Assembly (NCBI RefSeq): GCF_022539665.2
Contig: NC_081331.1
Location: forward strand, 12,710,001-12,774,000
Length of the DNA: 64,000 nt
Source: Daphnia carinata
Lineage: Eukaryota
Reading direction: 5' to 3'
The position numbers were made by a program, and so were the translations under genes. How positions within the stretch are numbered: the stretch's first letter is position 1; every line of letters starts with the position of its first letter. The notes below the pieces were generated by a model. That model was not told the DNA's origin, searched no databases, and worked only from the letters and a program-made list of their open reading frames with translations. Shown in pieces: positions 2,964 through 61,135 of the stretch.

Positions 2964-4823
2964 ACATCCCGTTCAGGACCGCAAGTTCTTTTCAGACCCA
3001 AACCCTCTGTATTTATTAGAAAACTAATGATTGGAATTTATGCTCACAATTTCAGAAAGCATTTGCTTGTGTAAGTTTAAACAACTGGCTAAAGCTTTAA
3101 CTATTCTGAAAAATATACCACATTGAAGATTTGAATGCCATTCGTCACCTGTATTTTATACTCATTTTAGAAGGCTTTAAAACTAGTAGAATAAGTACTA
3201 TCGGTTTCCCCAACTCAAAGGGCAAAACACATTTTTATTAACTCTTTTCCGCTTTCTTTTTATCATTGCAAGTAGCACGTACCCAACTCGCTATTCGGTA
3301 CGGAAACATCTATCTCTTAAAACACATTTTCTTTGGCCTAAATGTCAAGCCTGTATTACAGAATGATGTGAATTTACTGTATAATACATGGCGAAGTGTT
3401 GCGCAATCTTTTAAAGCGATTACTAATTGACACAAATCAAAGTACATTGTCTAGTCGAAAACATCGTGGGAGAATCGAGCGATGCAAGTGTTGAAATGTT
3501 CACGCTTGTGGTTAAAATCACGCGTGATTGCTTAGCTTTGCGACGCTCATGCGTGAATTACGATATGTGTTTTTGCGTATTAAAGTTGACTACGAAATTG
3601 TTCTTCTCAATGTTACATCGCTTTATTATGTTGTCATTTACTTTCGGAATTCAATCAACCGATGGATTGTAAACGTAGCTTCTTACAATTCCTTGGATAC
3701 AATGTAATGACTAGAAAAGGATAAAATTTCAAAGTCAAATAGCGTTTTCTCCCATGACAAATGTCTTTTCCACAAAGGGGGAATACAGGTGAGATTATGT
3801 ACATACAGCTCATTTCACAGAACGTTGATTCCGTAAATCTTGCCATACTCTCTTATACTAGACGTGGTAAAATGTGCGAATAGCTCCATATTTTCACGTT
3901 TTACTTTTGTTTTAACGTTGTTTCGCCCTACCCATTTAACGATAGATATCACAGAGGCTAAAGCAAGTATGAGGTTAGTATTCCATTAACTGGATCTCCT
4001 ATTATAACGAAAACTAGCAAATGCCATCGTTAACATCAAGAGAAATCCTCAAAACAGAGATGATGCTGTGAGCTCTCTCCAGCTAGAGAAACATATATTT
4101 TTCGTATTCTTTCTTATGTCAGTCTGTAATAGGTATAAAAGAAAAAACTGCATCGTTCTTCATGTGCGCTCGTTGAATTTCCACAGCTGACACAAGAGAA
4201 AATTCATATCGCAAAAAGAGAAATGGTGCAAGTCATAAAAGTCCTGCTAATACCTACGTACGTCCTCATCGCCTTCGACGTAAGGGTCCACACTTTTCTT
4301 TCCTTTCTCCCAATAACTTAAGAATTTCACTTTCGACTTTTATGTGTGTAGTACACCCAGTACGCGACGTTTACCCTGCTCGCTATTAGTAGCCCTCATC
4401 TTCACAAGTGGATTACGACACTTTTCTCTACCGCTCACTAGACCGCTAACGCGTTTAAAAGCCGGCACTTCGCCATCAGTGATCAGTGTTGTGTCGGCAA
4501 GAAACTGACAAACACCTTGCAAAAGGTAACACAACAGCTGTTCAAACATACTACAATTTTCTCTAAAGTTTTAACGTTGATCTCATTTAACCGGTTTTAA
4601 AAGTACAAAATTTTGATTTTTAGCTAAACTCGTTCGTTTTGCTTTAAAAATTATGCTTTTAACTATACTCACTACTACAAATTTACATTTAGATGTGTAA
4701 CGCGAAAGTTTCGAGATTAATTAAAGACGCACGCATGTTATTTTCATTCTATTTGATCAGCTTTTTCGGTTGCAGATCTTGGCGAATCAAGGACTGTTCA
4801 AGTAAAAGTTATCAAGTTCCAAC

Positions 4824-6488
4824 ATGATAGCAGTAGTAAGTAGATGCATATTGCATTTCATTTTATAATTGCTAATGATATAATGGGATTCGATTCCATT
4901 TTCATTAGGCAATCCTGCCGTTCTTGTTCGCTCGTGCCTTTGCCGCTCCGCAGTATGGGCCGCAAACCGCACCACAGCCATTTAAGACAACATCCCAAGT
5001 CTCGTTTGAACAATGGGCGAATGTCAATCCGTATGGCAACCCTAACGCTAACGCCTCACCGTCCAAACCAAAGGCTAAGATTGAAGAAATCCAGAAACAA
5101 TGGGCCAAATTCCTTGAGTAAGTGGTGCCACTTGAGTCGCTCCTTTGCGCAGACGTAACAACATTTACTGAATGATTTCAACACAGACGCATGCCGTGGT
5201 TAACTGGACCAGCTGGTCCACCGGGCCCACCTGGACCTTCGAGCAGTGGCAGCCAATCCCAACAACAACCCGTTGTTGGACCACCTGGCTTACCTGGAGC
5301 TCCCGGTCCTGCTGGACCTAAAGGAGAACGAGGCAATTCTGGAAATCCTGGAGCTCCTGGTGGGCCCGGGCCAGTAGGACCCTCCGGCCTTAATGGCGCT
5401 CCTGGTGCACTAGGACCGGCTGGCGAACGTGGATCAAACGGAGCTCCTGGTGGGCCCGGTACGCCTGGCTCCCCTGGTGCTAAAGGAGCTGCTGGTGCTA
5501 ATGGTGCTCCTGGCGTCAACGGAGCTCCAGGAGCCCCTGGCAAAGACGGTTTCAATGGCTTACCCGGATTCCAAGGACCCAAAGGCGAAGCGGGTGCACC
5601 CGGTATAACTTTGCCCTCAAACACACCTGGACCTGTAGGAGCTTCAGGTGCCCCTGGTAAAGATGGAGCACCAGGTTTCCCTGGCGGCCCTGGCCCCGTT
5701 GGTCCTGTCGGACCTGTTGGCCCGGTTGGACCTGCTGGCAGACCTGGTACGAATGGATTCCCCGGAGGCCCTGGTCCTAAGGGTGAAGCTGGAACTCCCG
5801 GATTCCCTGGAAGTCCCGGCAAAGATGGACGTCCTGGCGCTCCAAGTACTCAACCAGGTCCAGTTGGACCTCAGGGACCTGTCGGTCCACCCGGCTTCAA
5901 CGGCAAACCTGGAAACGATGGGCTTCCTGGCGGACCAGGTGCCCCAGGCAAAGACGGTCTGCCCGGCGGACCGGGCATTCCAGGTAATTAAATACGATTC
6001 AAAATCGAATTTCTCTATTGATTACTTTTAATTCACGTTCTATTTTTATAGGTGGACCTGGACAACCCGGTAAACCTGGCAAGGATGGTTTGAATGGCGC
6101 TCCTGGAGCTCCCGGTATCCCTGGTGGACCGGGGCCTGTAGGACTTGAGGGCAAACCTGGCCCAGCTGGTCTTCCTGGCAACCCTGGTGGGCCAGGATCA
6201 GCTGGACCGATTGGTGGTCCAGGACCTCAAGGTAAGCCGGGTGCACCAGGATATCCCGGAGGGCCTGGCCCAGTTGGACCTCAAGGTGGACCTGGGCCGC
6301 AAGGGGGACCTGGTCCTAAAGGCGAGTCTGGCACACCTGGTGGCCCAGGACCCGCCGGTCCCCCGGGCCCTCAAGGGCCTGCAGCTTCCACCCCAGCTCC
6401 GGCCTACCCAGCTCCTGCTCAACAGCCATCCTATCAAGCCCCAGCTCAATCATCGTTTCAATCACAACAGTCCAACTACTGGCGATAA
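4824..6488 (+). CDS. Secreted short collagen-like protein 2
   Basis: Exons ~4824-4835 (MIAV), 4909-5118, 5187-~5983, ~6052-6488. Head EQWANVNPY...[17 protein letters not shown], Gly-X-Y tract with the same interruptions as paralog 1 ([14 protein letters not shown]), PAY/QS-rich tail. Confidence 0.88.
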
Positions 6489-13640: not shown

Positions 13641-15280
<1,640 letters not shown>

Positions 15281-21896: not shown

Positions 21897-24800
21897 ATGA
21901 ACAACCACATACGCATGGAATATATGCACCTGTTGCCCTGGCGCCGACTCGCTAAAGAAAACGGAGATGAGGAACTTGGAATAGATGACGACAATGTATT
22001 TATACACATAGTTTGTAATTTTTACCCTATGGTAATTAATTTTCTTTTTTTTTTTTTTTTACAAAGTTATCTGAATCCGAAACTCACTATCACGATGTCA
22101 ACAACCCACGGGGGTCGGTGTACAGCAAGTACAGGTACGTAAACAAAAAGAAATAAAAAACAGGTTTCGTAAAAATAACTTTTCATTGATCCCATTGAAC
22201 AATTTCCCTCGTCCAGTTTAAACGAAGGTGATTTAAAACTCTTGGGCTTTATTCGCGAAGACAATGGAATTATCGAAGAAACTGAAACGGCTAGTGGAAT
22301 GTATTGCACCACTGTTAACCAACGTCTGATGATGGCCATTGAAGACAGAGACACAGTAAGAAAAATAAAACAAGAATAACAATATTATTTGATTGTGCTT
22401 TTTCTTCTAATGCTACGTAATATTATTTTAAACAGGGTGGAATCGAATTTTGCCTAAAAAACGGAGCGGACCCCAACGGTCAATACGGACCCAACAAAAT
22501 CACAGCGCTTCATTTAGCGGTTAGACATTTCGTAATTTTTGTTGTTTCGAGTCTTGCATAATACGTTATTGATTATTCATATTTGATTTCTTAGACGGTT
22601 GGAGCGCCTGAGGCTGTACAAGTTCTTTTGAAACACGGCGCTGACGTAAAAGCGGCCGATTCGAGGGGCATAACACCACTTCACCTAGCTGCTGGCATTG
22701 GTTGTGAGGATCTGGTCCAGCAGCTGATCGTTGCTGGAGCTGACGTAAACGTACAGGATTACGCAAGAGAGAATGGAGGAGGACAGGAAACCCCACTCCA
22801 TCGGGCGGCTGTCGGAGGTCATCTGGAAGCGTTGCGACAATTGATTCATGGTGGAGCTCAGGTAAAGAATATCAAACCTCAAGTCCTTTGTTCATGTCGT
22901 CACTCATTGAATAATAACAGGTGGATATTGGCGAAGCCAGAGGACGGACACCACTTCATTACGCAGCTCAGCGAGGAGCAGCTGGCTGCATCCAGGCCCT
23001 ATTGGATTATCAAGCCGATCCCAACCTATCCGATAAAACAGGTGCTACTGCATTGCTACTCTTAGGAGGAGGTTACCTCATCAAGGGACATCGTCGTGTT
23101 TCAGGGTATTTAATTTAAAATTCCATTCGAAAAATGCTTCTTTAGTATACTTAATACAATTGGCTACAGGTATTCCGAAAGTGTTGAAATTCTAATCAGA
23201 GGAGGAGCCAAAGTGAATGTCAAAGACCCGAACACGGGCGTTACTCCCTTGCACCAAGCCGTAACGCTTGGCCGGTTGGAGTCGACCAAATTACTGCTGG
23301 CATCCGGTGCCGATCTGACCGCACAGGACAGCGAAGGTGGCACTCCGTTTCACTCTTGCGCACTCAAAGGACAAGCGTCTACTCTCAAATATTTATTATC
23401 CCAGCCGGGCGCTAGAGATGCCGTCAATTTGGCCGATTCTAGAGGTCGTATGCCGCTTCATAAAGCAGCTTACCGTGGCTCGGCCGAATGTATTCAACTT
23501 TTGCTGAAAGCTGGCGCCGACCTGGGTGCCAAAACCAAAACGGGCTTGAGTGCGGCCACGCTCATTCTCCAATTGCCGAATGGGGCGAAAATTTTGAGCA
23601 AAAGGCTGGATGAATCCATCATCTCTAACGGAATCGATCCGAGCGAAGTGGCCTGTCGTATCAAGTTCGATTATTCAGTGTTGCTGACGAAGCACAAATT
23701 CCAGCAAATGGGCGTTATCGAGGATATCATGGATGACAGACGTCAGAGGCGTACGGCTGATTTGCTTCAACATCCGGTCATCGAGTCCTTCCTATATTTG
23801 AAATGGCGCAAGATCCGATTTCTCTTCTTTTCAAACATTCTTTTGTATTTGATTCTGGTATCGGGGGTAACCGCCTACGTTCTATCGAGCGTTTGGAATG
23901 ACCCTGTACCGCCAGTTGAACCTCAAGTCACAACAATTTCTCCGGAATTGAATATCAGCGAAACAACAACGGAACCTTTAGTTACAAGTCCAATCGCTTC
24001 GGAACCAGAAACAGTGCTGCAATTGCAATTATCCTTGAACATCATTATACTAATCATCATCGTGCAGGAGGCAATTCAGTTTACGTCACTACATTATCAG
24101 TATTTCCGCGAACCAGAGTCTTGGATAAAACTGGGAGCTCTTGTGACGTCAACCATCGTCATCTTCTCTGCCCCTCCTTGGCCAAGCTGGGTTCATCATG
24201 TGTCAGCTGTGGCTGTTCTTCTAGGCTGGTCTGAGGTCACTCTTCTCCTCGGACGGTAAATTGAATTTATAGCATAAAGAATGAACAAAACAAATTATTA
24301 TCTTGAATCATTTAGATTGCCAACGTTTGGGGTTTATGCACTCATGTTCTACGCGGTGGCACAGCACCTGGTCAAATTCATCTTCGTCTTTTTCTTTTTC
24401 CTCGCTGGCTTCTCGTTTAGTTTCCATCTTGTTTTCAAAGATCGACACGAAACGTTCAGCTCACCGGGGACGTCACTGTTGCGCACGTTTGCTATGATGA
24501 TTGGTGATACTTCTTATGACGAGTAAGTACTAACGATCTAAAATAATTCTTGTTCTCTGGTTAGTTAACTGACGTTGTTTTTTATTTTCTTAGTTACATG
24601 ACTGCAGGCAACGTCAGTCTAGAAGGAACGGCGCATGTCATCTACTTCTTTTTCCTCGTACTAGTTTCACTTATCCTGATGAACTTGCTTATTGGCTTGG
24701 CCGTCAACGATATTCAAGGGCTTCAGAAAGAAGGCAGCATCAAGAGGTTGCGTAAACAGGCCGAATTCATCGTCTATCTGGAGGACATAGCTAGCAATCG

Positions 24801-32383: not shown

Positions 32384-34598
32384 ATGTTAACCTTTCTGTG
32401 CTCACTGCCCATTTTATGGCAAATCGGATTGCTCATTTCGCTTCTACTTGGTGGCTTTAAAGCCTACCTCTGGTACACGTTGGGTGTTTGTACCAGCACA
32501 AAGAAAATGTCGGGCAAAACGGTCATCATCACTGGAGCCAATACGGGTATCGGCAAAGAGACTGCCATTGATCTTGCAAAACGAGGAGCACGAGTCATTC
32601 TCGCATGTCGAGATCCAAAAAAAGCAGCGATCGCCAAAGGTAAGCCGGCCTTACTTTCAATACCATGGTAACACATCGCACTCGAAATTTTCACTGATTT
32701 TCTAACCGTTGGGGCAGATGATATTATTCAGGAAACCGGTAACAAAAATGTAGTCGTCCGCCACCTTGACTTGGCATCCCTCAAGTCTGTCCGCAAGTTT
32801 GCAGCTGAAATTCTTAAGAGTGAACCTCGTCTGGACATCCTCATCAACAACGCCGGCTGCGCTACAATTGAGAAGAAACTAACTGAAGATGGATTAGAGT
32901 ACCAAATGCAAAGCAATCACTTTGGTCACTTCTTGCTAACCAATCTACTGTTAGGTAAGACTTGTCCGGTAGAAATCGCAAGTTAGTAGGCAAATATTCG
33001 GTGAAAGTAGACTTAAACAGTTGGATCGTATACAATGTGTACATTATTTGATACGTTAATTGAAACTGAAGGATTGATCATCAAAACCGGGACTGCTCGT
33101 ATTATCAACGTTAGCTCTGAAGCCCATAGGATGCCCAATCGCTTGAATTTGGACGATCTGACCTTTGATCGTGACCCAGCTGACAGCAAAATTCTCAGAA
33201 TTTATGGTGTCACGAAGCTTTGCAACATTCTGTTTAGCAAAGAACTGGCAAGAAAGCTCGAACCTTGTGGTGAATGGTTTTCATTACTATTTACGGCTCG
33301 ATGAAAGAGTGTGTGCGTTATTCAACGGTGGAATGGAATGCCAAAGGCAACTGGTTTTCGTATCGAATCAGCATAAAATTGGCGCTTGAGCATGTTACTG
33401 TCAGCACTTCTATTCTTCTTCCTTCTTTTTTCATGTGCCTTGTCCTCCTAGGATTGCTGAAAAAATCAGCCCCTTCCCGCATCATTCACGTTTCTTCCAT
33501 GGCGCACGCTTTTACCAAGACGTTGGACTTGAATAACTTGAATTCGGAACTATCCTATAATACCGGCACAGTGTAGGCTATTAAATTGCCATTTTGTTCT
33601 GCGTGTCGCGAGTTTCTTTTTAATATGCACTATCATTTTTTTGTTAGATATTACTATTCCAAGTTGAGCCAAGTTCTTTGTACTCGACATCTCACACGTC
33701 TCCTTTCCAATTCCGGTAACGGCCAACAGCCAAATTTGCTTAAATCATAGAACAAAGTCAGATTTTCTATCACCCTACTCTACGACATTATGTTCGAAAG
33801 GCGTGACCGTGAACTGTTTACATCCTGGTGCTGTCCAAACTGAAATATTCCGCAACGCTCCTTCATGTAACATCAGCTCATTTAAATTATTGGCGCACCA
33901 ATTTCTATTCGACCTCACACTGTGTTATTCCTTAATTCATTAGGGTTCCAGATGATAGCCGCCATCACTTTTCCTCTTTTCTTCAAGGTTCTTTTCGTTT
34001 TTTTCTTAGTTCGCTTCCGCTTCTTATTTTCATTCCACTGATTGAGTAATTGCGCTTACTTCATTATCATCAAGCAAATGTTTTTAATTTCTAAATTGAT
34101 CGTACTAATTTACGCCTGTATCTCCAGGTAAGAATATAACTGTCAATTCTCTTCATCCGGGAGTCGTACATACCGAATTCGGTCGGTTCCTTCCTTATGA
34201 GGTTTTCAAGAAAATAATGACAGCCATTTCCCCCCTCTTCTCGAAGGTTGAGAGCGACTTATCAAGACACGCTTTTTCATTCTATTTGATTTTCTTAATT
34301 GATTCAATCGGTTGGTAAAACATGTGATTGTAAATCTTATTTTTAGTCGGCTAAAGAAGGAGCGCAGACCACAATTTACTTGGCTGTGGCTGACGAAGTC
34401 GCCAACGTTTCAGGAAAATATTTCTGCGATTGCAAGGTAAATGTTTCTATCGCAATTTGTATTGAAGATCATAACCGATGACTTTCTCGTCAGATCGCTA
34501 AAACCAGCAAATTGGCAAAGGATGCGGGACTAGCCAAAAAATTGTGGGAAGTCAGTGAAACGCTTGTTAAATTGAAGCCAGAAGAGCGACACTACTAA
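32384..34598 (+). CDS. Short-chain dehydrogenase/reductase, retinol dehydrogenase 11-14-like, with duplicated alternative internal exons
   Basis: N-terminal anchor, [44 protein letters not shown], two YxxxK-bearing exon sets, [34 protein letters not shown] at 34596-34598. Confidence 0.92.
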
Positions 34599-56741: not shown

Positions 56742-57845
56742 TTAATATTGCGCCGGAAGTAGCCCATTTACCCAATCGACGATGGTCTTATCGTGCCAAA
56801 CGTAAGCTCCTTTCGGATTTGTGGCGTCGTTGGGTGGCAACATGGCCAACCACGACGGAGCAGCAGCACCTAGTCAATCAATAATTAACGTTAATCAAGT
56901 GGTATGAAGCAATGAATTCTACATGTAGCTACCTTGTTCAATTGTTAACACCCCTTTAAAGGACGCCATTTTCGTATTGACGTAGCCAGGATGGACGTGA
57001 TTAACGATTATGTCTTCACGTGGATCAACATTGAAATCACGTTGTTGGATTCGTGTCATCGCACTTACAGCGATTTTAGACGCAATGTAAGAGACCCAGT
57101 TTTTCTGTGGCCAGCCATAATCCGAATGATCTCCTCGCTTCACAGCACTATAAAAATGTCAAAACAAGTTTAAATTTTGAAATTTAGGAATCAACGGTCT
57201 TTAAAAGTTACTCCAGAAAATCGTTCATGAGTTTCAACAGCTCGTCGTACGAGAGATCCGGAGAAGAAAATTTGGCTCTTAATGTGGTGGCTGCCTCACT
57301 CTGACCCTCGATCTGGGAAATGTGACCCATGCTGCTAGATAAATTGACTACTCTTGCGTGAGGCCTCAGAAGGGGGAAAAGGATATTGCACACACGAAGC
57401 GTATTGAAAAAATTAGTTTGCACTACGGAGCGCGTGTTTTCTGTAAACAATTCTCGTGAATCTTCATTTTTCGCCAAAATTAACATCGCAGCATTGTTAA
57501 CCAAGATATCTAGACCGCTATAGGTTGCTTTCAGGTAGTCTCTCAGCCGCAGAACACTGGATTCGTCATCGATATCAAGTTGGTGGTATTTGGGATGCAA
57601 GCCAAGCTTCCCAAGTTCTTCGACTGCGGCCCTACCCAAATTCTCATTTCGAGAAGTTAGATAAACTGAGCCGCTAAACGTTTTACATAGTTCTTTAACA
57701 GTTGCATAGCCAATGCCTTGGTTTGCTCCAGTAACCTTTTTGAATCCAGGTAATGAAGTTAATGTTAAATGAGTTGCATGGAACATACATATAAGTTGGG
57801 GAAGATGAATTCAAAACGTACCACTGCAACACGGGATCCGACCAT
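56742..57845 (-). CDS. Carbonyl reductase [NADPH] 1/3-like SDR
   Basis: MVGSRVAV|VTGANQGIG, YHQLDIDD, GLDILVNNA, TNFFNTLRVCNILFPLLRPHARVVNLSS, GWP...YIASK, VNHVHPGYVNTKM, LTIEQGA...PKGAYVWHDK. Confidence 0.9.
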
Positions 57846-58162: not shown

Positions 58163-60446
58163 TTACAAATTGTTGCGCACTTTCCATGCACTTTCGTCCT
58201 TTGACTGCAACTGCTGAATAACACGGCGACCCCAACGGAGCCATAGAAATCCGAAAACAATGCATATAAGCGATTCAACGTAAAAACCATCCAAGTCGAC
58301 GACGCATTGACCTCCAGCTTCAGTACATAACTATGCCCAAATGAAACAAGTTTTACGCTTATGTTTATGGCTGACGTTAAACATCGAGAAAATGATAACT
58401 TACCAGTGTTTCGGCGGAATTGCGGCACTTGTTAGTTTCACCGACGATAGAATTTCCTGTGTGGCAGCTTTTCCAAGTCAAAGCATCAACGGACCAAAGA
58501 GCTAACGTAGAGGGCCAGTTGCCCCCAAGATTGCACACTGCAAAATAATATTTGAAAAACAAAGAAGACAATAAAGTACTCAAAAGGTAACAATATATAT
58601 TTTTGTTAATCACGGCACCTGTGTTTAGTAGCGTCATATAGGTTCCGCCAACCTGAGGATCACTAACCTATAAACAAAGAACGATCATAAAAGGATAAGT
58701 TGTTGAGGAAATAAATGTTGAACACGCAACGTCTTACTTTGGCAAAGAATGCCATCACGGCAACAAACATACTGTACACTGTGACCTAGGAAAACTGATA
58801 ATTACATGGTGGCAATTAATGAATGAATGCGTATGGTGGTACCTGATGTATAGCGTAAATGATAACAACGATTAAATAGTAATAAAAAGGAAACTGGCCG
58901 TCGCTGCTTTGAAACCAGGGAGTTATCCATACCAGACCAGCATAAACAAATCCGAACATTAACCTGCAGGTTGGTGAGGTGAATGTATTAAAGAATTAAC
59001 GGTGGTTCTTTTTGTTTAAGAACGATCTTGTTTACCTATAAGGAATGGCTTTTATAAAAACTTGCATGGGCCGAGGCCCGGCAGTGTATCGGCTTATGAA
59101 AAGTGGCAGGACAATTTGAAGTGGGACTAAAGGGACCGCTAACAAGGCTAATTGCGCTTTGGGAACTCCCTAAAAGATTTAATAACACCGAGATCAATCG
59201 AAAGTCACAATAATCAAGCAGGGAGGGAAAATTCTCATTGTTACCATTTCAACTAATTTAAGACCGGAAACTGCATCGGACGCTGAAAATCCTATCTAAA
59301 TGATAAGACGGAGAAAATAATACCAGCAAATGAAATTCTGAAATGCTTAAAGTTACCTTGCAGGTTAAGAGAACTACTACAGTCCACCTGATGACAGGAA
59401 GTTTAAATATTTTGAGCAATAGCTTGTAAGTCTCCATAATGCTTAAATCCTGCTCATCGCCTTCATGGCCGTCTCTTTCGTTATTTTCTTGTGCTTGTGT
59501 TTTCTCTCTTTTGAAAAACCACACAAGCGTCGTGGTGATAAAGAAAATGATTCCCCAAAAATAAAGGAACCCTAGAATCCATATATGGAATCGAATTAGA
59601 AACTTGACCACACGCAACGCGTGAATTCTAGTACTTTACCTGATAATGTTAGAAGACCATTTGGTTCAGGATGATTCCTTAGATATTTGTTGCAGAAATC
59701 TGCAGATTCAAAAGCTACAAAAACAACATAGCCTAAAAAATAACCAGCAGTTTGACCAACACTGTTGCAAGTAGAAGCATAACCCACATTTTTCCTGTGT
59801 ATAACAGAGAATGTATGTGTTAGTGTTTTATAAAATAATTTGCAAATGGACAATTAAAAGAAAACCTGTGCAACATTGTTAATGCCCATCCATCAACAGC
59901 AATGTCTTGAGTTGCAGCTAAAAAGTTTAGAATAAAGAATGCTGCAGTTAACAGTTGGATATTAGGGGACCCTTCTGAATCCAGATATTGGTCCACCCTA
60001 GTTGACAAAAACAGCATAGCCACTCCAATCAGGTACTGTACAGGAACAAGCTGTGCAACAACAACAGATATTAATGCCTATTGCGAAGAAGCAATAAATG
60101 ATTTTAGTACCCAAGTTTTTCTTCTCCCCATCTTAGATGAATACAAGGAGTCCACTATTGGAGCCCATAGGAGTTTCAGGCTAAATGGCCAAAACACAAG
60201 ACTGAATTCTGCTTGTTCTTTGTAGCTAACATGCCGGTTCTGTAGCATGAGGGGAATGCTGGCAGTCAATCCTAAAGGAATTCCTTGCAGCAAATACAAA
60301 AAGAAGAGCAGGGCAATATTTTTGCCTTCACCTTTCCAACTCCAAATAAGCGGTGCGTCCTTCATTTCTTTGATTTGGTAACTACTTCCTTTTTCACTCA
60401 ATGAAGAACGTCCATTTTCTGCTTGTAATTCTCCTCGCTTCCTCAT
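58163..60446 (-). CDS. SLC33A1: Acetyl-coenzyme A transporter 1 (AT-1, MFS)
   Basis: NIALLFFLYLLQGIPLGL, WPFSLKLLWAPIVDS, GRRKTW, FLAATQDIAVDGWALTML, NVGYASTCNSVGQTAGYFLG, GGTYMTLLNT, NLGGNWP, DGFYVES; last exon ends SAWKVRNNL*. Confidence 0.95.
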
Positions 60447-61135
60447 TGTACAATCTGAAATTTGTTGTAAATTTAATGATTTCTTTCTTTTAAAATGTCT
60501 ACTTTTAACACCTGTGGTTGTTGGATTGGTTAAATGAACAGGTAGTTGTACATTGAGATGATTTGCCTGGTCCTGTGTGATGACGTTGCCTGCTGCCGAT
60601 AGTTCTCAGTCCAAAAACAAAAACCTTTTTCGTCTGCTAGTATCTGACAGATAAAAGGGTTGACACTTGACAGCATGCGATTTTCTCATTTTGTTATTAA
60701 ACTAAAATTTTGCTTTTGACAATACTAGTTTTCCGACACAATAAAAACGATATCATAGAATATGAACACTAAATGGGCTAACGTGCTGCGTAGATGAAAA
60801 ATCAAGCGCAGCAAAGTAAATGATACTGAACTGGGGCTGCTGGGGTTCTATTCAATTTTATTCAGTTTTTGATGAGGATTTTGCATCTAACATACAGCAC
60901 ATAACAGCACTTGATGGTGAGAGGAAGAAAACCGGCGACGGGTACTTCATTTAACAGGTCGATGAATGAATTTTCAACACGGTTGAATTTGAACTTTTGC
61001 TGTGTCAAACGGTGGAGTTCTGTCTGTTACTGCCACCACGCCACCAGAGCAATAAAGGTAGGGGAGGAAGAGAACAGGTAAGATTCATCACTGGCACAGC
61101 GGACGTAGCTAGGGTCAGCTATGCAGCATGCGGGA

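Follow-up and report, generated by a model that had tools for sequence, protein, structure and literature searches.

A Daphnia dehydrogenase gene with two alternative catalytic cores and a conserved predicted intron helix that likely couples their exons

Joint choice of alternative exons that lie far apart is an open problem, and most of the worked examples, such as Dscam1 and myosin, are huge. RNA pairing guides mutually exclusive exons in Dscam1, srp, 14-3-3, Mhc and MRP1, according to the available parts of two accounts (PMC4691838, PMC6071210). In the Dscam1-type systems set out in those parts, conserved complementary intron elements loop out exons so that weak splice sites approach each other, the exons are homologous duplicates, and one exon is taken from a tandem array by competing docker/selector or two-way pairings (PMC4691838, PMC6071210). 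The Daphnia carinata gene reported here resembles them in its homologous duplicated exons, its weak splice sites and its complementary intron elements, but a single predicted helix encloses a block of four exons, the alternative to that block flanks it in two parts, and the search for a competing helix was negative.

Other described systems share single features with this gene. In Drosophila PGRP-LC, CG42235 and Pip, multi-part cassettes encoding a functional domain are chosen by competing RNA pairings; in the accessible portion of that report the cassettes are 3' variable regions, whereas those described here are internal and nested, with shared exons on both sides (PMC6191721). Human CUX1 has interleaved clusters in which the choice at one is tied to the choice at the other, although the accessible text describes no nested A-B-B-A order and no enclosing helix, and the clusters do not form an enzyme core (PMC5740500). 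The recursive-splicing exons of Ubx m1 type, as far as the available section of the source goes, are coding exons that open with a donor motif immediately after the acceptor and have a weaker donor of their own (PMC8605326). One exon here is built in the same way, but its introns are short, re-splicing is only a candidate, and the motif may simply follow from Gly-Lys codons. For PGM1/PGM5 and the FYN family, the part of the paper at hand reports that copies of a gene lost one of their duplicated exon sets (PMC9741552); a duplicate described below lost a whole two-part enzyme core and the helix rather than one exon. Classical short-chain dehydrogenases/reductases (SDRs) of the RDH11-14-like kind carry the same motifs as our gene, in which ~105 core residues are swapped by splicing.

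Our literature search, with supplements and subscription papers outside it, found no paper on this gene, on mutually exclusive splicing of a Daphnia retinol dehydrogenase or on SDRs with mutually exclusive exons. RefSeq already has the two isoforms, X1 and X2, unexplained. Coupling by an enclosing helix would likely add a further form to the mutually exclusive splicing that RNA pairing guides, here in a 1.2-kb, two-state, fully mutable gene of a laboratory animal with a single predicted helix.

Exons and splice joints of the two paths

The window is the whole stretch of DNA that was analysed, 64,000 nt of D. carinata contig NC_081331.1 (positions 12,710,001 to 12,774,000), and the gene lies on its plus strand. 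Shared exon E1 (32384..32639) carries the start codon at 32384, the N-terminal hydrophobic helix and TGxxxGxG, and shared exon E2 (32718..32954) carries NNAG and Asn152 and ends in a strong donor in phase 1. The next exon, A1 (33072..33269, 198 nt), encodes catalytic segment A with Ser180 and YGVTK; its acceptor is AAG and is without a pyrimidine tract in the window. Catalytic segment B is split into B1a (33452..33572, 121 nt), whose acceptor is YAG and is preceded by a pyrimidine tract, and B1b (33648..33715, 68 nt), which encodes the catalytic helix of core B with YYYSK. Exon B2a (33801..33866, 66 nt) follows with a strand, the HPG motif and the start of loop B, and B2b (33944..33987, 44 nt) ends that loop at a weak donor in phase 0. 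Exon A2 (34128..34246, 119 nt) holds the corresponding strand, HPG motif and loop A; it starts with a donor-like motif immediately after its acceptor, and its own donor is weak. Downstream of both alternatives lie shared exon E5 (34347..34436) and the coding part of E6 (34494..34598), which runs to the stop codon. The ordinary introns of the gene are 57-117 nt long.

The original prediction had drawn the same exons, and the only refinement concerns the end of B2a, which moves from about 33867 to 33866. Its phases, open frames and splice sites were likewise found as it gave them. All exon borders are GT-AG, A1 and B1a+B1b both run from phase 1 to phase 1, and A2 and B2a+B2b both run from phase 1 to phase 0. 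The A and B segments are homologous, phase-compatible alternatives, with identical residues in 20 of 65 aligned columns for A1 and B1 and in 18 of 39 for A2 and B2. Four paths are open: A1+A2 (334 aa), B (328 aa), A1+B2 (331 aa) and B1+A2 (331 aa). Inclusion of both A1 and B1 is also in frame, as is the skipping of both catalytic segments; B2b followed by A2 gives a frameshift and an early stop.

With A1 as the query, we retrieved the D. carinata RDH13-like isoform X1 (XP_057370183.1). The A1+A2 path of the window equals RefSeq isoform X1 letter for letter, the B path equals isoform X2 letter for letter, and the B path plus A2 is the truncated isoform X3. Both full isoforms match Pfam adh_short (PF00106) with 113 and 114 bits against a cut-off of 26.6, and both contain TGxxxGxG, NNAG, N-S-Y-K, HPG and the N-terminal hydrophobic helix. 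Residues G51, G55, G57, N130, N152, S180 and the catalytic Lys are invariant in 88-89 aligned sequences. The gene is thus a classical SDR (PF00106), RDH11-14-like; an RDH-like SDR had been proposed from the DNA, and the name retinol dehydrogenase comes from automatic annotation only. A PDB search gave a single match at E<=1e-30, an uncharacterised SDR. Predicted models of isoforms X1 and X2 (mean pLDDT 94.3 and 94.1, pTM 0.92) have similar folds with the alternating strand-helix Rossmann pattern. The swapped stretch corresponds to residues 165-270 of isoform X1, about 105 residues of the core, and in the predicted model it begins with the strand that leads to Ser180, takes in the lid, the YxxxK helix and the HPG strand, and includes the loop and helix that come next. 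Splicing thus swaps about a third of the enzyme, with the catalytic Ser, the YxxxK helix and the substrate loop exchanged together. The two isoforms would differ in substrate, and their substrates would most likely be lipophilic aldehydes or alcohols, the kind handled by RDH11-14-like SDRs.

Splice joints were read from assembled contigs of relatives, from which rare forms drop out; none of 6 runs (shares 0.05-0.07) came from the same organism as the window. Joints were scored on the window in four runs, three of them only guessed to be RNA, and the tally comprises the nine joints listed, with depths not used to rank isoforms. The E1>E2 joint was present in three of the four runs. The original prediction had named 32954>33072 versus 32954>33452, and 33269/33715>33801 versus >34128, as the junctions that would reveal its alternative paths. 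The first of these, E2>A1, was observed as a GT-AG joint in run X6 and as loose contig ends in runs X1 and X2. The A1>A2 joint (33269>34128), which spans the whole B block, was found in three of the four runs, as an A1 end attached to A2 in runs X1 and X2 and within a single contig in run X5, and A2>E5 was seen in runs X2, X5 and X6. On the other path, B1a>B1b, B1b>B2a (33715>33801) and B2a>B2b were joints in three of four runs, with B1b unbroken into B2a, and in runs X1 and X2 the B exons lay in one 329-nt contig ending at the start of E5 (B2b>E5). The mixed pairs A1>B2a and B1b>A2 did not occur among the nine joints listed, and neither did A1>B1a.

The junction 32954>33452 (E2>B1a) was also absent among the listed joints of these relatives' contigs. 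In runs X1 and X2, however, the contig with E1 and E2 breaks off at 32955 and the one with the B exons begins at 33449, and from this fork together with the RefSeq X2 models we infer that E2 is joined to B1a. In run X6, E2 was joined to A1 only, and the sole way into B1a was the A1-B1a intron (33270-33451), which was retained; the B exons were nonetheless spliced to one another, and the retained intron may reflect a processing intermediate or an A-favouring condition.

Annotated isoforms of other species show the same two paths. For D. magna, RefSeq isoform X1 is the A path, X2 the B path (its protein also has a Logan source) and X3 joins E2 to A2; for D. pulex and D. pulicaria, X2 is the B path and X3 is B plus A2. 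The B path is thus annotated as isoform X2 in four species, with proteins 83-94% identical, and the form with the B2b>A2 joint as isoform X3 in three. Mixed isoforms were absent among the RefSeq isoforms surveyed in the four species (X1, X2 and X3 of D. carinata and D. magna, X2 and X3 of D. pulex and D. pulicaria), and neither of the window's two mixed proteins was among 235 proteins collected. Since in contigs of two related organisms A1 joins A2 across the B block, the B exons stay together and no mixed joint is listed, the gene appears to have two coupled cores and not four combinations. The mutually exclusive use of two cores that had been predicted is supported by the joints in relatives and by the identity of isoforms X1 and X2, but the combinatorial swapping with up to four isoforms is not. 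Low-level mixing of the cores is possible, given that P0007, an older gene model of D. pulex, itself combines A1 with B2 and that contigs lose rare forms.

A predicted helix enclosing the B exons

A metagenome scan returned 21 loci, two of them daphniid-like (L001 and L002); the other 19, distant SDRs that match part of A1 at 30-69%, were left aside. L001 carries E1, E2, A1, the following intron and B1a, the minus strand of L002 carries B1b, B2a, B2b, A2, E5 and E6, and their ends overlap by 13 nt. Identity to the window is 72-88% for most of their exons and 94% for E2. Each of the six alternative exons keeps an open frame in this diverged homologue, and the 39 codons of B1a compared with L001 show 1 amino-acid-changing and 13 synonymous differences. 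Together with the exact RefSeq matches and the joints in contigs of relatives, these open frames argue against a chance arrangement. The polyA run X5 contains a 481-nt contig A1>A2>E5>E6 with 0 differences to the L002 minus strand over A2, E5 and E6, and its loose end reads as the A1 end in L001, indicating that A1>A2 joining across the B block is used in a second lineage too. The B exons of L002 were without cover in run X5, which proves nothing, and in run X3 no contig matched L002.

The first 115 nt of E2 (32718-32832) and ~69 nt of A1 (about 33188-33256) are identical between the window and L001. The E1 of L001 is only 72% identical to the window, unlike these tracts, and a closer relative (organism A) differs from the window at many of these E2 sites. 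The pattern suggests gene conversion or introgression.

In the window, an upstream arm in the A1-B1a intron (33296..33338) is predicted to pair with a downstream arm in the B2b-A2 intron (34028..34075) through 38 pairs with ensemble probabilities of 0.57-0.93. Among 36 intron pairs, these two introns gave the best local duplex, -40.0 kcal/mol compared with -30.0 for the next, and 0 of 200 shuffles reached it; the same duplex in the diverged homologue scored -37.9, reached by 0 of 150 shuffles. The helix appears in both the MFE and the centroid structure of the 1421-nt fold. The arms are better conserved than their surroundings: the upstream arm is identical to L001 at 36 of 43 nt versus 74 of 139 in the rest of its intron, and the downstream arm to the L002 minus strand at 45 of 50 nt versus 60 of 90. 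By automatic alignment, 29 of 35 helix pairs are kept between the two intact copies, with 6 of 35 failing in the MAFFT register, and a 2-nt insertion in one homologue arm faces a 5-nt insertion in the other, making a single internal loop. The two arms are, by this comparison, conserved long-range complementary intron elements, and the predicted helix between them is an addition to what had been noted before. The B2b-A2 intron of L002 contains an inserted repeat of ~100 nt (5350-5452), to which unrelated contigs also match; the repeat adjoins the upstream side of the downstream arm, which is intact.

Two-sided compensatory changes were absent between the two intact copies, a comparison of little power with two copies, which moreover are perhaps not fully independent because they share the anomalous identical tracts in E2 and A1. 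Manual re-registering gave three one-sided wobble-to-Watson-Crick changes, and swapping arms between copies weakened the duplex in one direction only (-30.2 versus -41.5).

A second source of comparison is a duplicate on the plus strand of L002, which has E1, E2, A1, A2, E5 and E6 but no B exons. This A-only duplicate (1031-2778, plus) and the two-core gene (4718-5936, minus) lie tail to tail within 2 kb, providing a natural loss-of-cassette control. Both arms are still alignable in the duplicate, but 13 of 35 pairs are gapped and the duplex is non-significant (-24.3, reached by 4 of 25 shuffles; z 0.38), which is the decay expected if selection lapsed after B was lost.

The search for other pairings was negative. 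Neither the window nor the homologue yielded a competing helix for the B state, the i7xi8, i2xi3 and i3xi6 intron duplexes had no local significance in either copy, and the free downstream arm had no partner above 0.47 within the window. A four-element chain of competing helices suggested by eye, tested as the E2-A1 x A1-B1a introns plus the B2b-A2 x A2-E5 introns, was not significant. The A1-B1a x B2a-B2b duplex reached z -3.6 over whole introns, but locally 3 of 25 shuffles reached its score, and 22 of 25 did so in the homologue. Another predicted helix lies over the B1a donor (33566-33577 with 33913-33925); by eye it has no counterpart in L001/L002.

How the choice of exons may be coupled

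We consider it likely that the gene has two cores on coupled paths and that the conserved predicted helix couples them by looping out the B exons. The choice made at E2 would commit the transcript. With E2 joined to A1, the transcript would keep the upstream arm, which would pair with the downstream arm and loop out 689 nt. The A1 donor would then be separated from the A2 acceptor by 26+52 unpaired nt, a 78-nt effective intron of about the size of the gene's ordinary introns. If E2 is instead spliced to B1a, whose acceptor is stronger, the excised intron would take A1 and the upstream arm with it, no helix could form, and the B exons would be spliced in order; B could then no longer be looped out, since the joining of E2 to B1a deletes the upstream arm. 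Both enzymes would share the membrane anchor and the cofactor site.

On the B path, A2 would then be dropped leakily, whether it is skipped directly or removed by re-splicing at its donor-like start. Transcripts retaining A2 behind B2b are out of frame and would be cleared by nonsense-mediated decay. The donor motif at the A2 start is present in all three copies, the B-less duplicate included. Scored at 11 places against the textbook donor consensus, it has 10 matches behind B2b and 8 behind A1, and A2's own donor has 6 in the window and 5 in L002. Judged by these sites, A2 has the anatomy of a candidate expressed recursive-splicing exon, making a re-splicing step possible, although its donor-like start may reflect only Gly-Lys codons. 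The X3 models with B2b>A2 fit a leak or an intermediate, and the E2>A2 form annotated for D. magna is a further leak form. More tentatively, and with doubt, we put forward a self-contained binary switch, in which the first choice keeps or deletes a helix arm and so decides the second choice 800 nt downstream, A2 is re-spliced on the B path, and two ancient cores stay unmixed while repeatedly giving rise to single-core paralogues.

Two independent mutually exclusive clusters, with four isoforms at meaningful levels, would be an unlikely arrangement. All four paths are in frame, P0007 is a mixed model, an Artemia gene described below combines one catalytic segment with three loops, so that the loop can vary alone, and rare forms may be missed in contigs. 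However, no mixed joint is among the nine listed, B1b runs unbroken into B2a in three of four runs, the A2 contigs of runs X1 and X2 carry the A1 end directly, the RefSeq isoforms surveyed in four species (X2 and X3 for D. pulex and D. pulicaria) include no mixed form, and the helix encloses B1 and B2 together. Equally improbable, in our judgement, is a coupling by splice-site strength, trans-acting factors and decay, with the arms acting as protein-binding or retention elements and their pairing incidental or secondary. The AAG acceptor of A1, found in all three copies (window, L001 and the L002 plus-strand paralogue) against the YAG of B1a, would suit it, as would the lack of two-sided covariation between the intact copies, the arm remnants in the duplicate without B and the contigs with a retained A1-B1a intron. 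Yet in two diverged copies the complementarity of these conserved elements, which lie ~700 nt from each other, far exceeds that of shuffled sequences, this complementarity has decayed where B was lost, and decay cannot clear mixed or A1+B1 forms that are in frame.

That one path is vestigial or mis-annotated and the other alone makes protein is very improbable. It would account for the absence of E2>B1a among the joints listed, for run X6, which reaches B only through an intron, and for run X5, which shows the A path only; it does not fit the six open alternative exons of the diverged homologue with the largely synonymous differences in B1a, the 83-94% identity of the B isoforms in four species, or the B2b>E5 joint in runs X1 and X2. 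The reading we favour is still the two coupled paths with the predicted helix looping out B.

Origin of the two cores and the surrounding genes

In a tree of the cores (53 rows, P0007 left out), four single-core Daphnia paralogues joined A (95/88) and nine others joined B (94/87) within a clade of 27 rows (100/99). A topology that keeps A and B together was rejected (p-AU 3e-8), and the old duplication proposed from the differing intron content agrees with this grouping. The shared flanks grouped with B-type paralogues (92/90), and their placement with A-type paralogues was not rejected (p-AU 0.074). Catalytic and loop segments were matched in all 13 named Daphnia single-core paralogues and in 15 of 16 environmental proteins; the environmental P0038 and Artemia X3 score as an A-like catalytic segment with a B-like loop, and outgroup rows, which score near zero in this A/B comparison, were not counted. 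These sequences are most simply read as descending from an old two-core gene, with duplicates that each retained a single path; the L002 plus-strand duplicate is an example of such a loss. In this way a two-core gene could give rise to whole families of single-core paralogues. Capture of the A exons from another gene is possible.

Two proteins were set aside: P0123 (450 aa), in which part of E2 is repeated and which looks like an assembly chimera, and P0005, a garbled gene model. A core swap was found in none of 13 isoform comparisons (termite, locust, cockroach, crayfish, shrimp). The Artemia franciscana proteins P0019, P0145 and P0146 are isoforms of one RDH-like gene that differ only in residues 227-262, the HPG-loop; the gene is, from these proteins, a candidate for a three-way mutually exclusive loop exon, hinting that the HPG-loop exon is a recurrent duplication target.

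The SDR gene is embedded in a tandem array on the minus strand (window 26699-55773) whose genes encode Gly/Tyr/His-rich proteins. These proteins are built of repeated units with RKRR-like basic sites and an acidic stretch that closes with AE or AEH, features resembling those of processed secreted precursors; the array proteins scanned with Pfam gave one weak GRP match only. Other open reading frames in the window encode a second SDR (57208-57810, minus), an acetyl-CoA transporter (60078-60605, minus) and, on the plus strand at 5176-5991, 13716-14804 and 23114-24259, two collagen-repeat proteins and one ankyrin-repeat protein.
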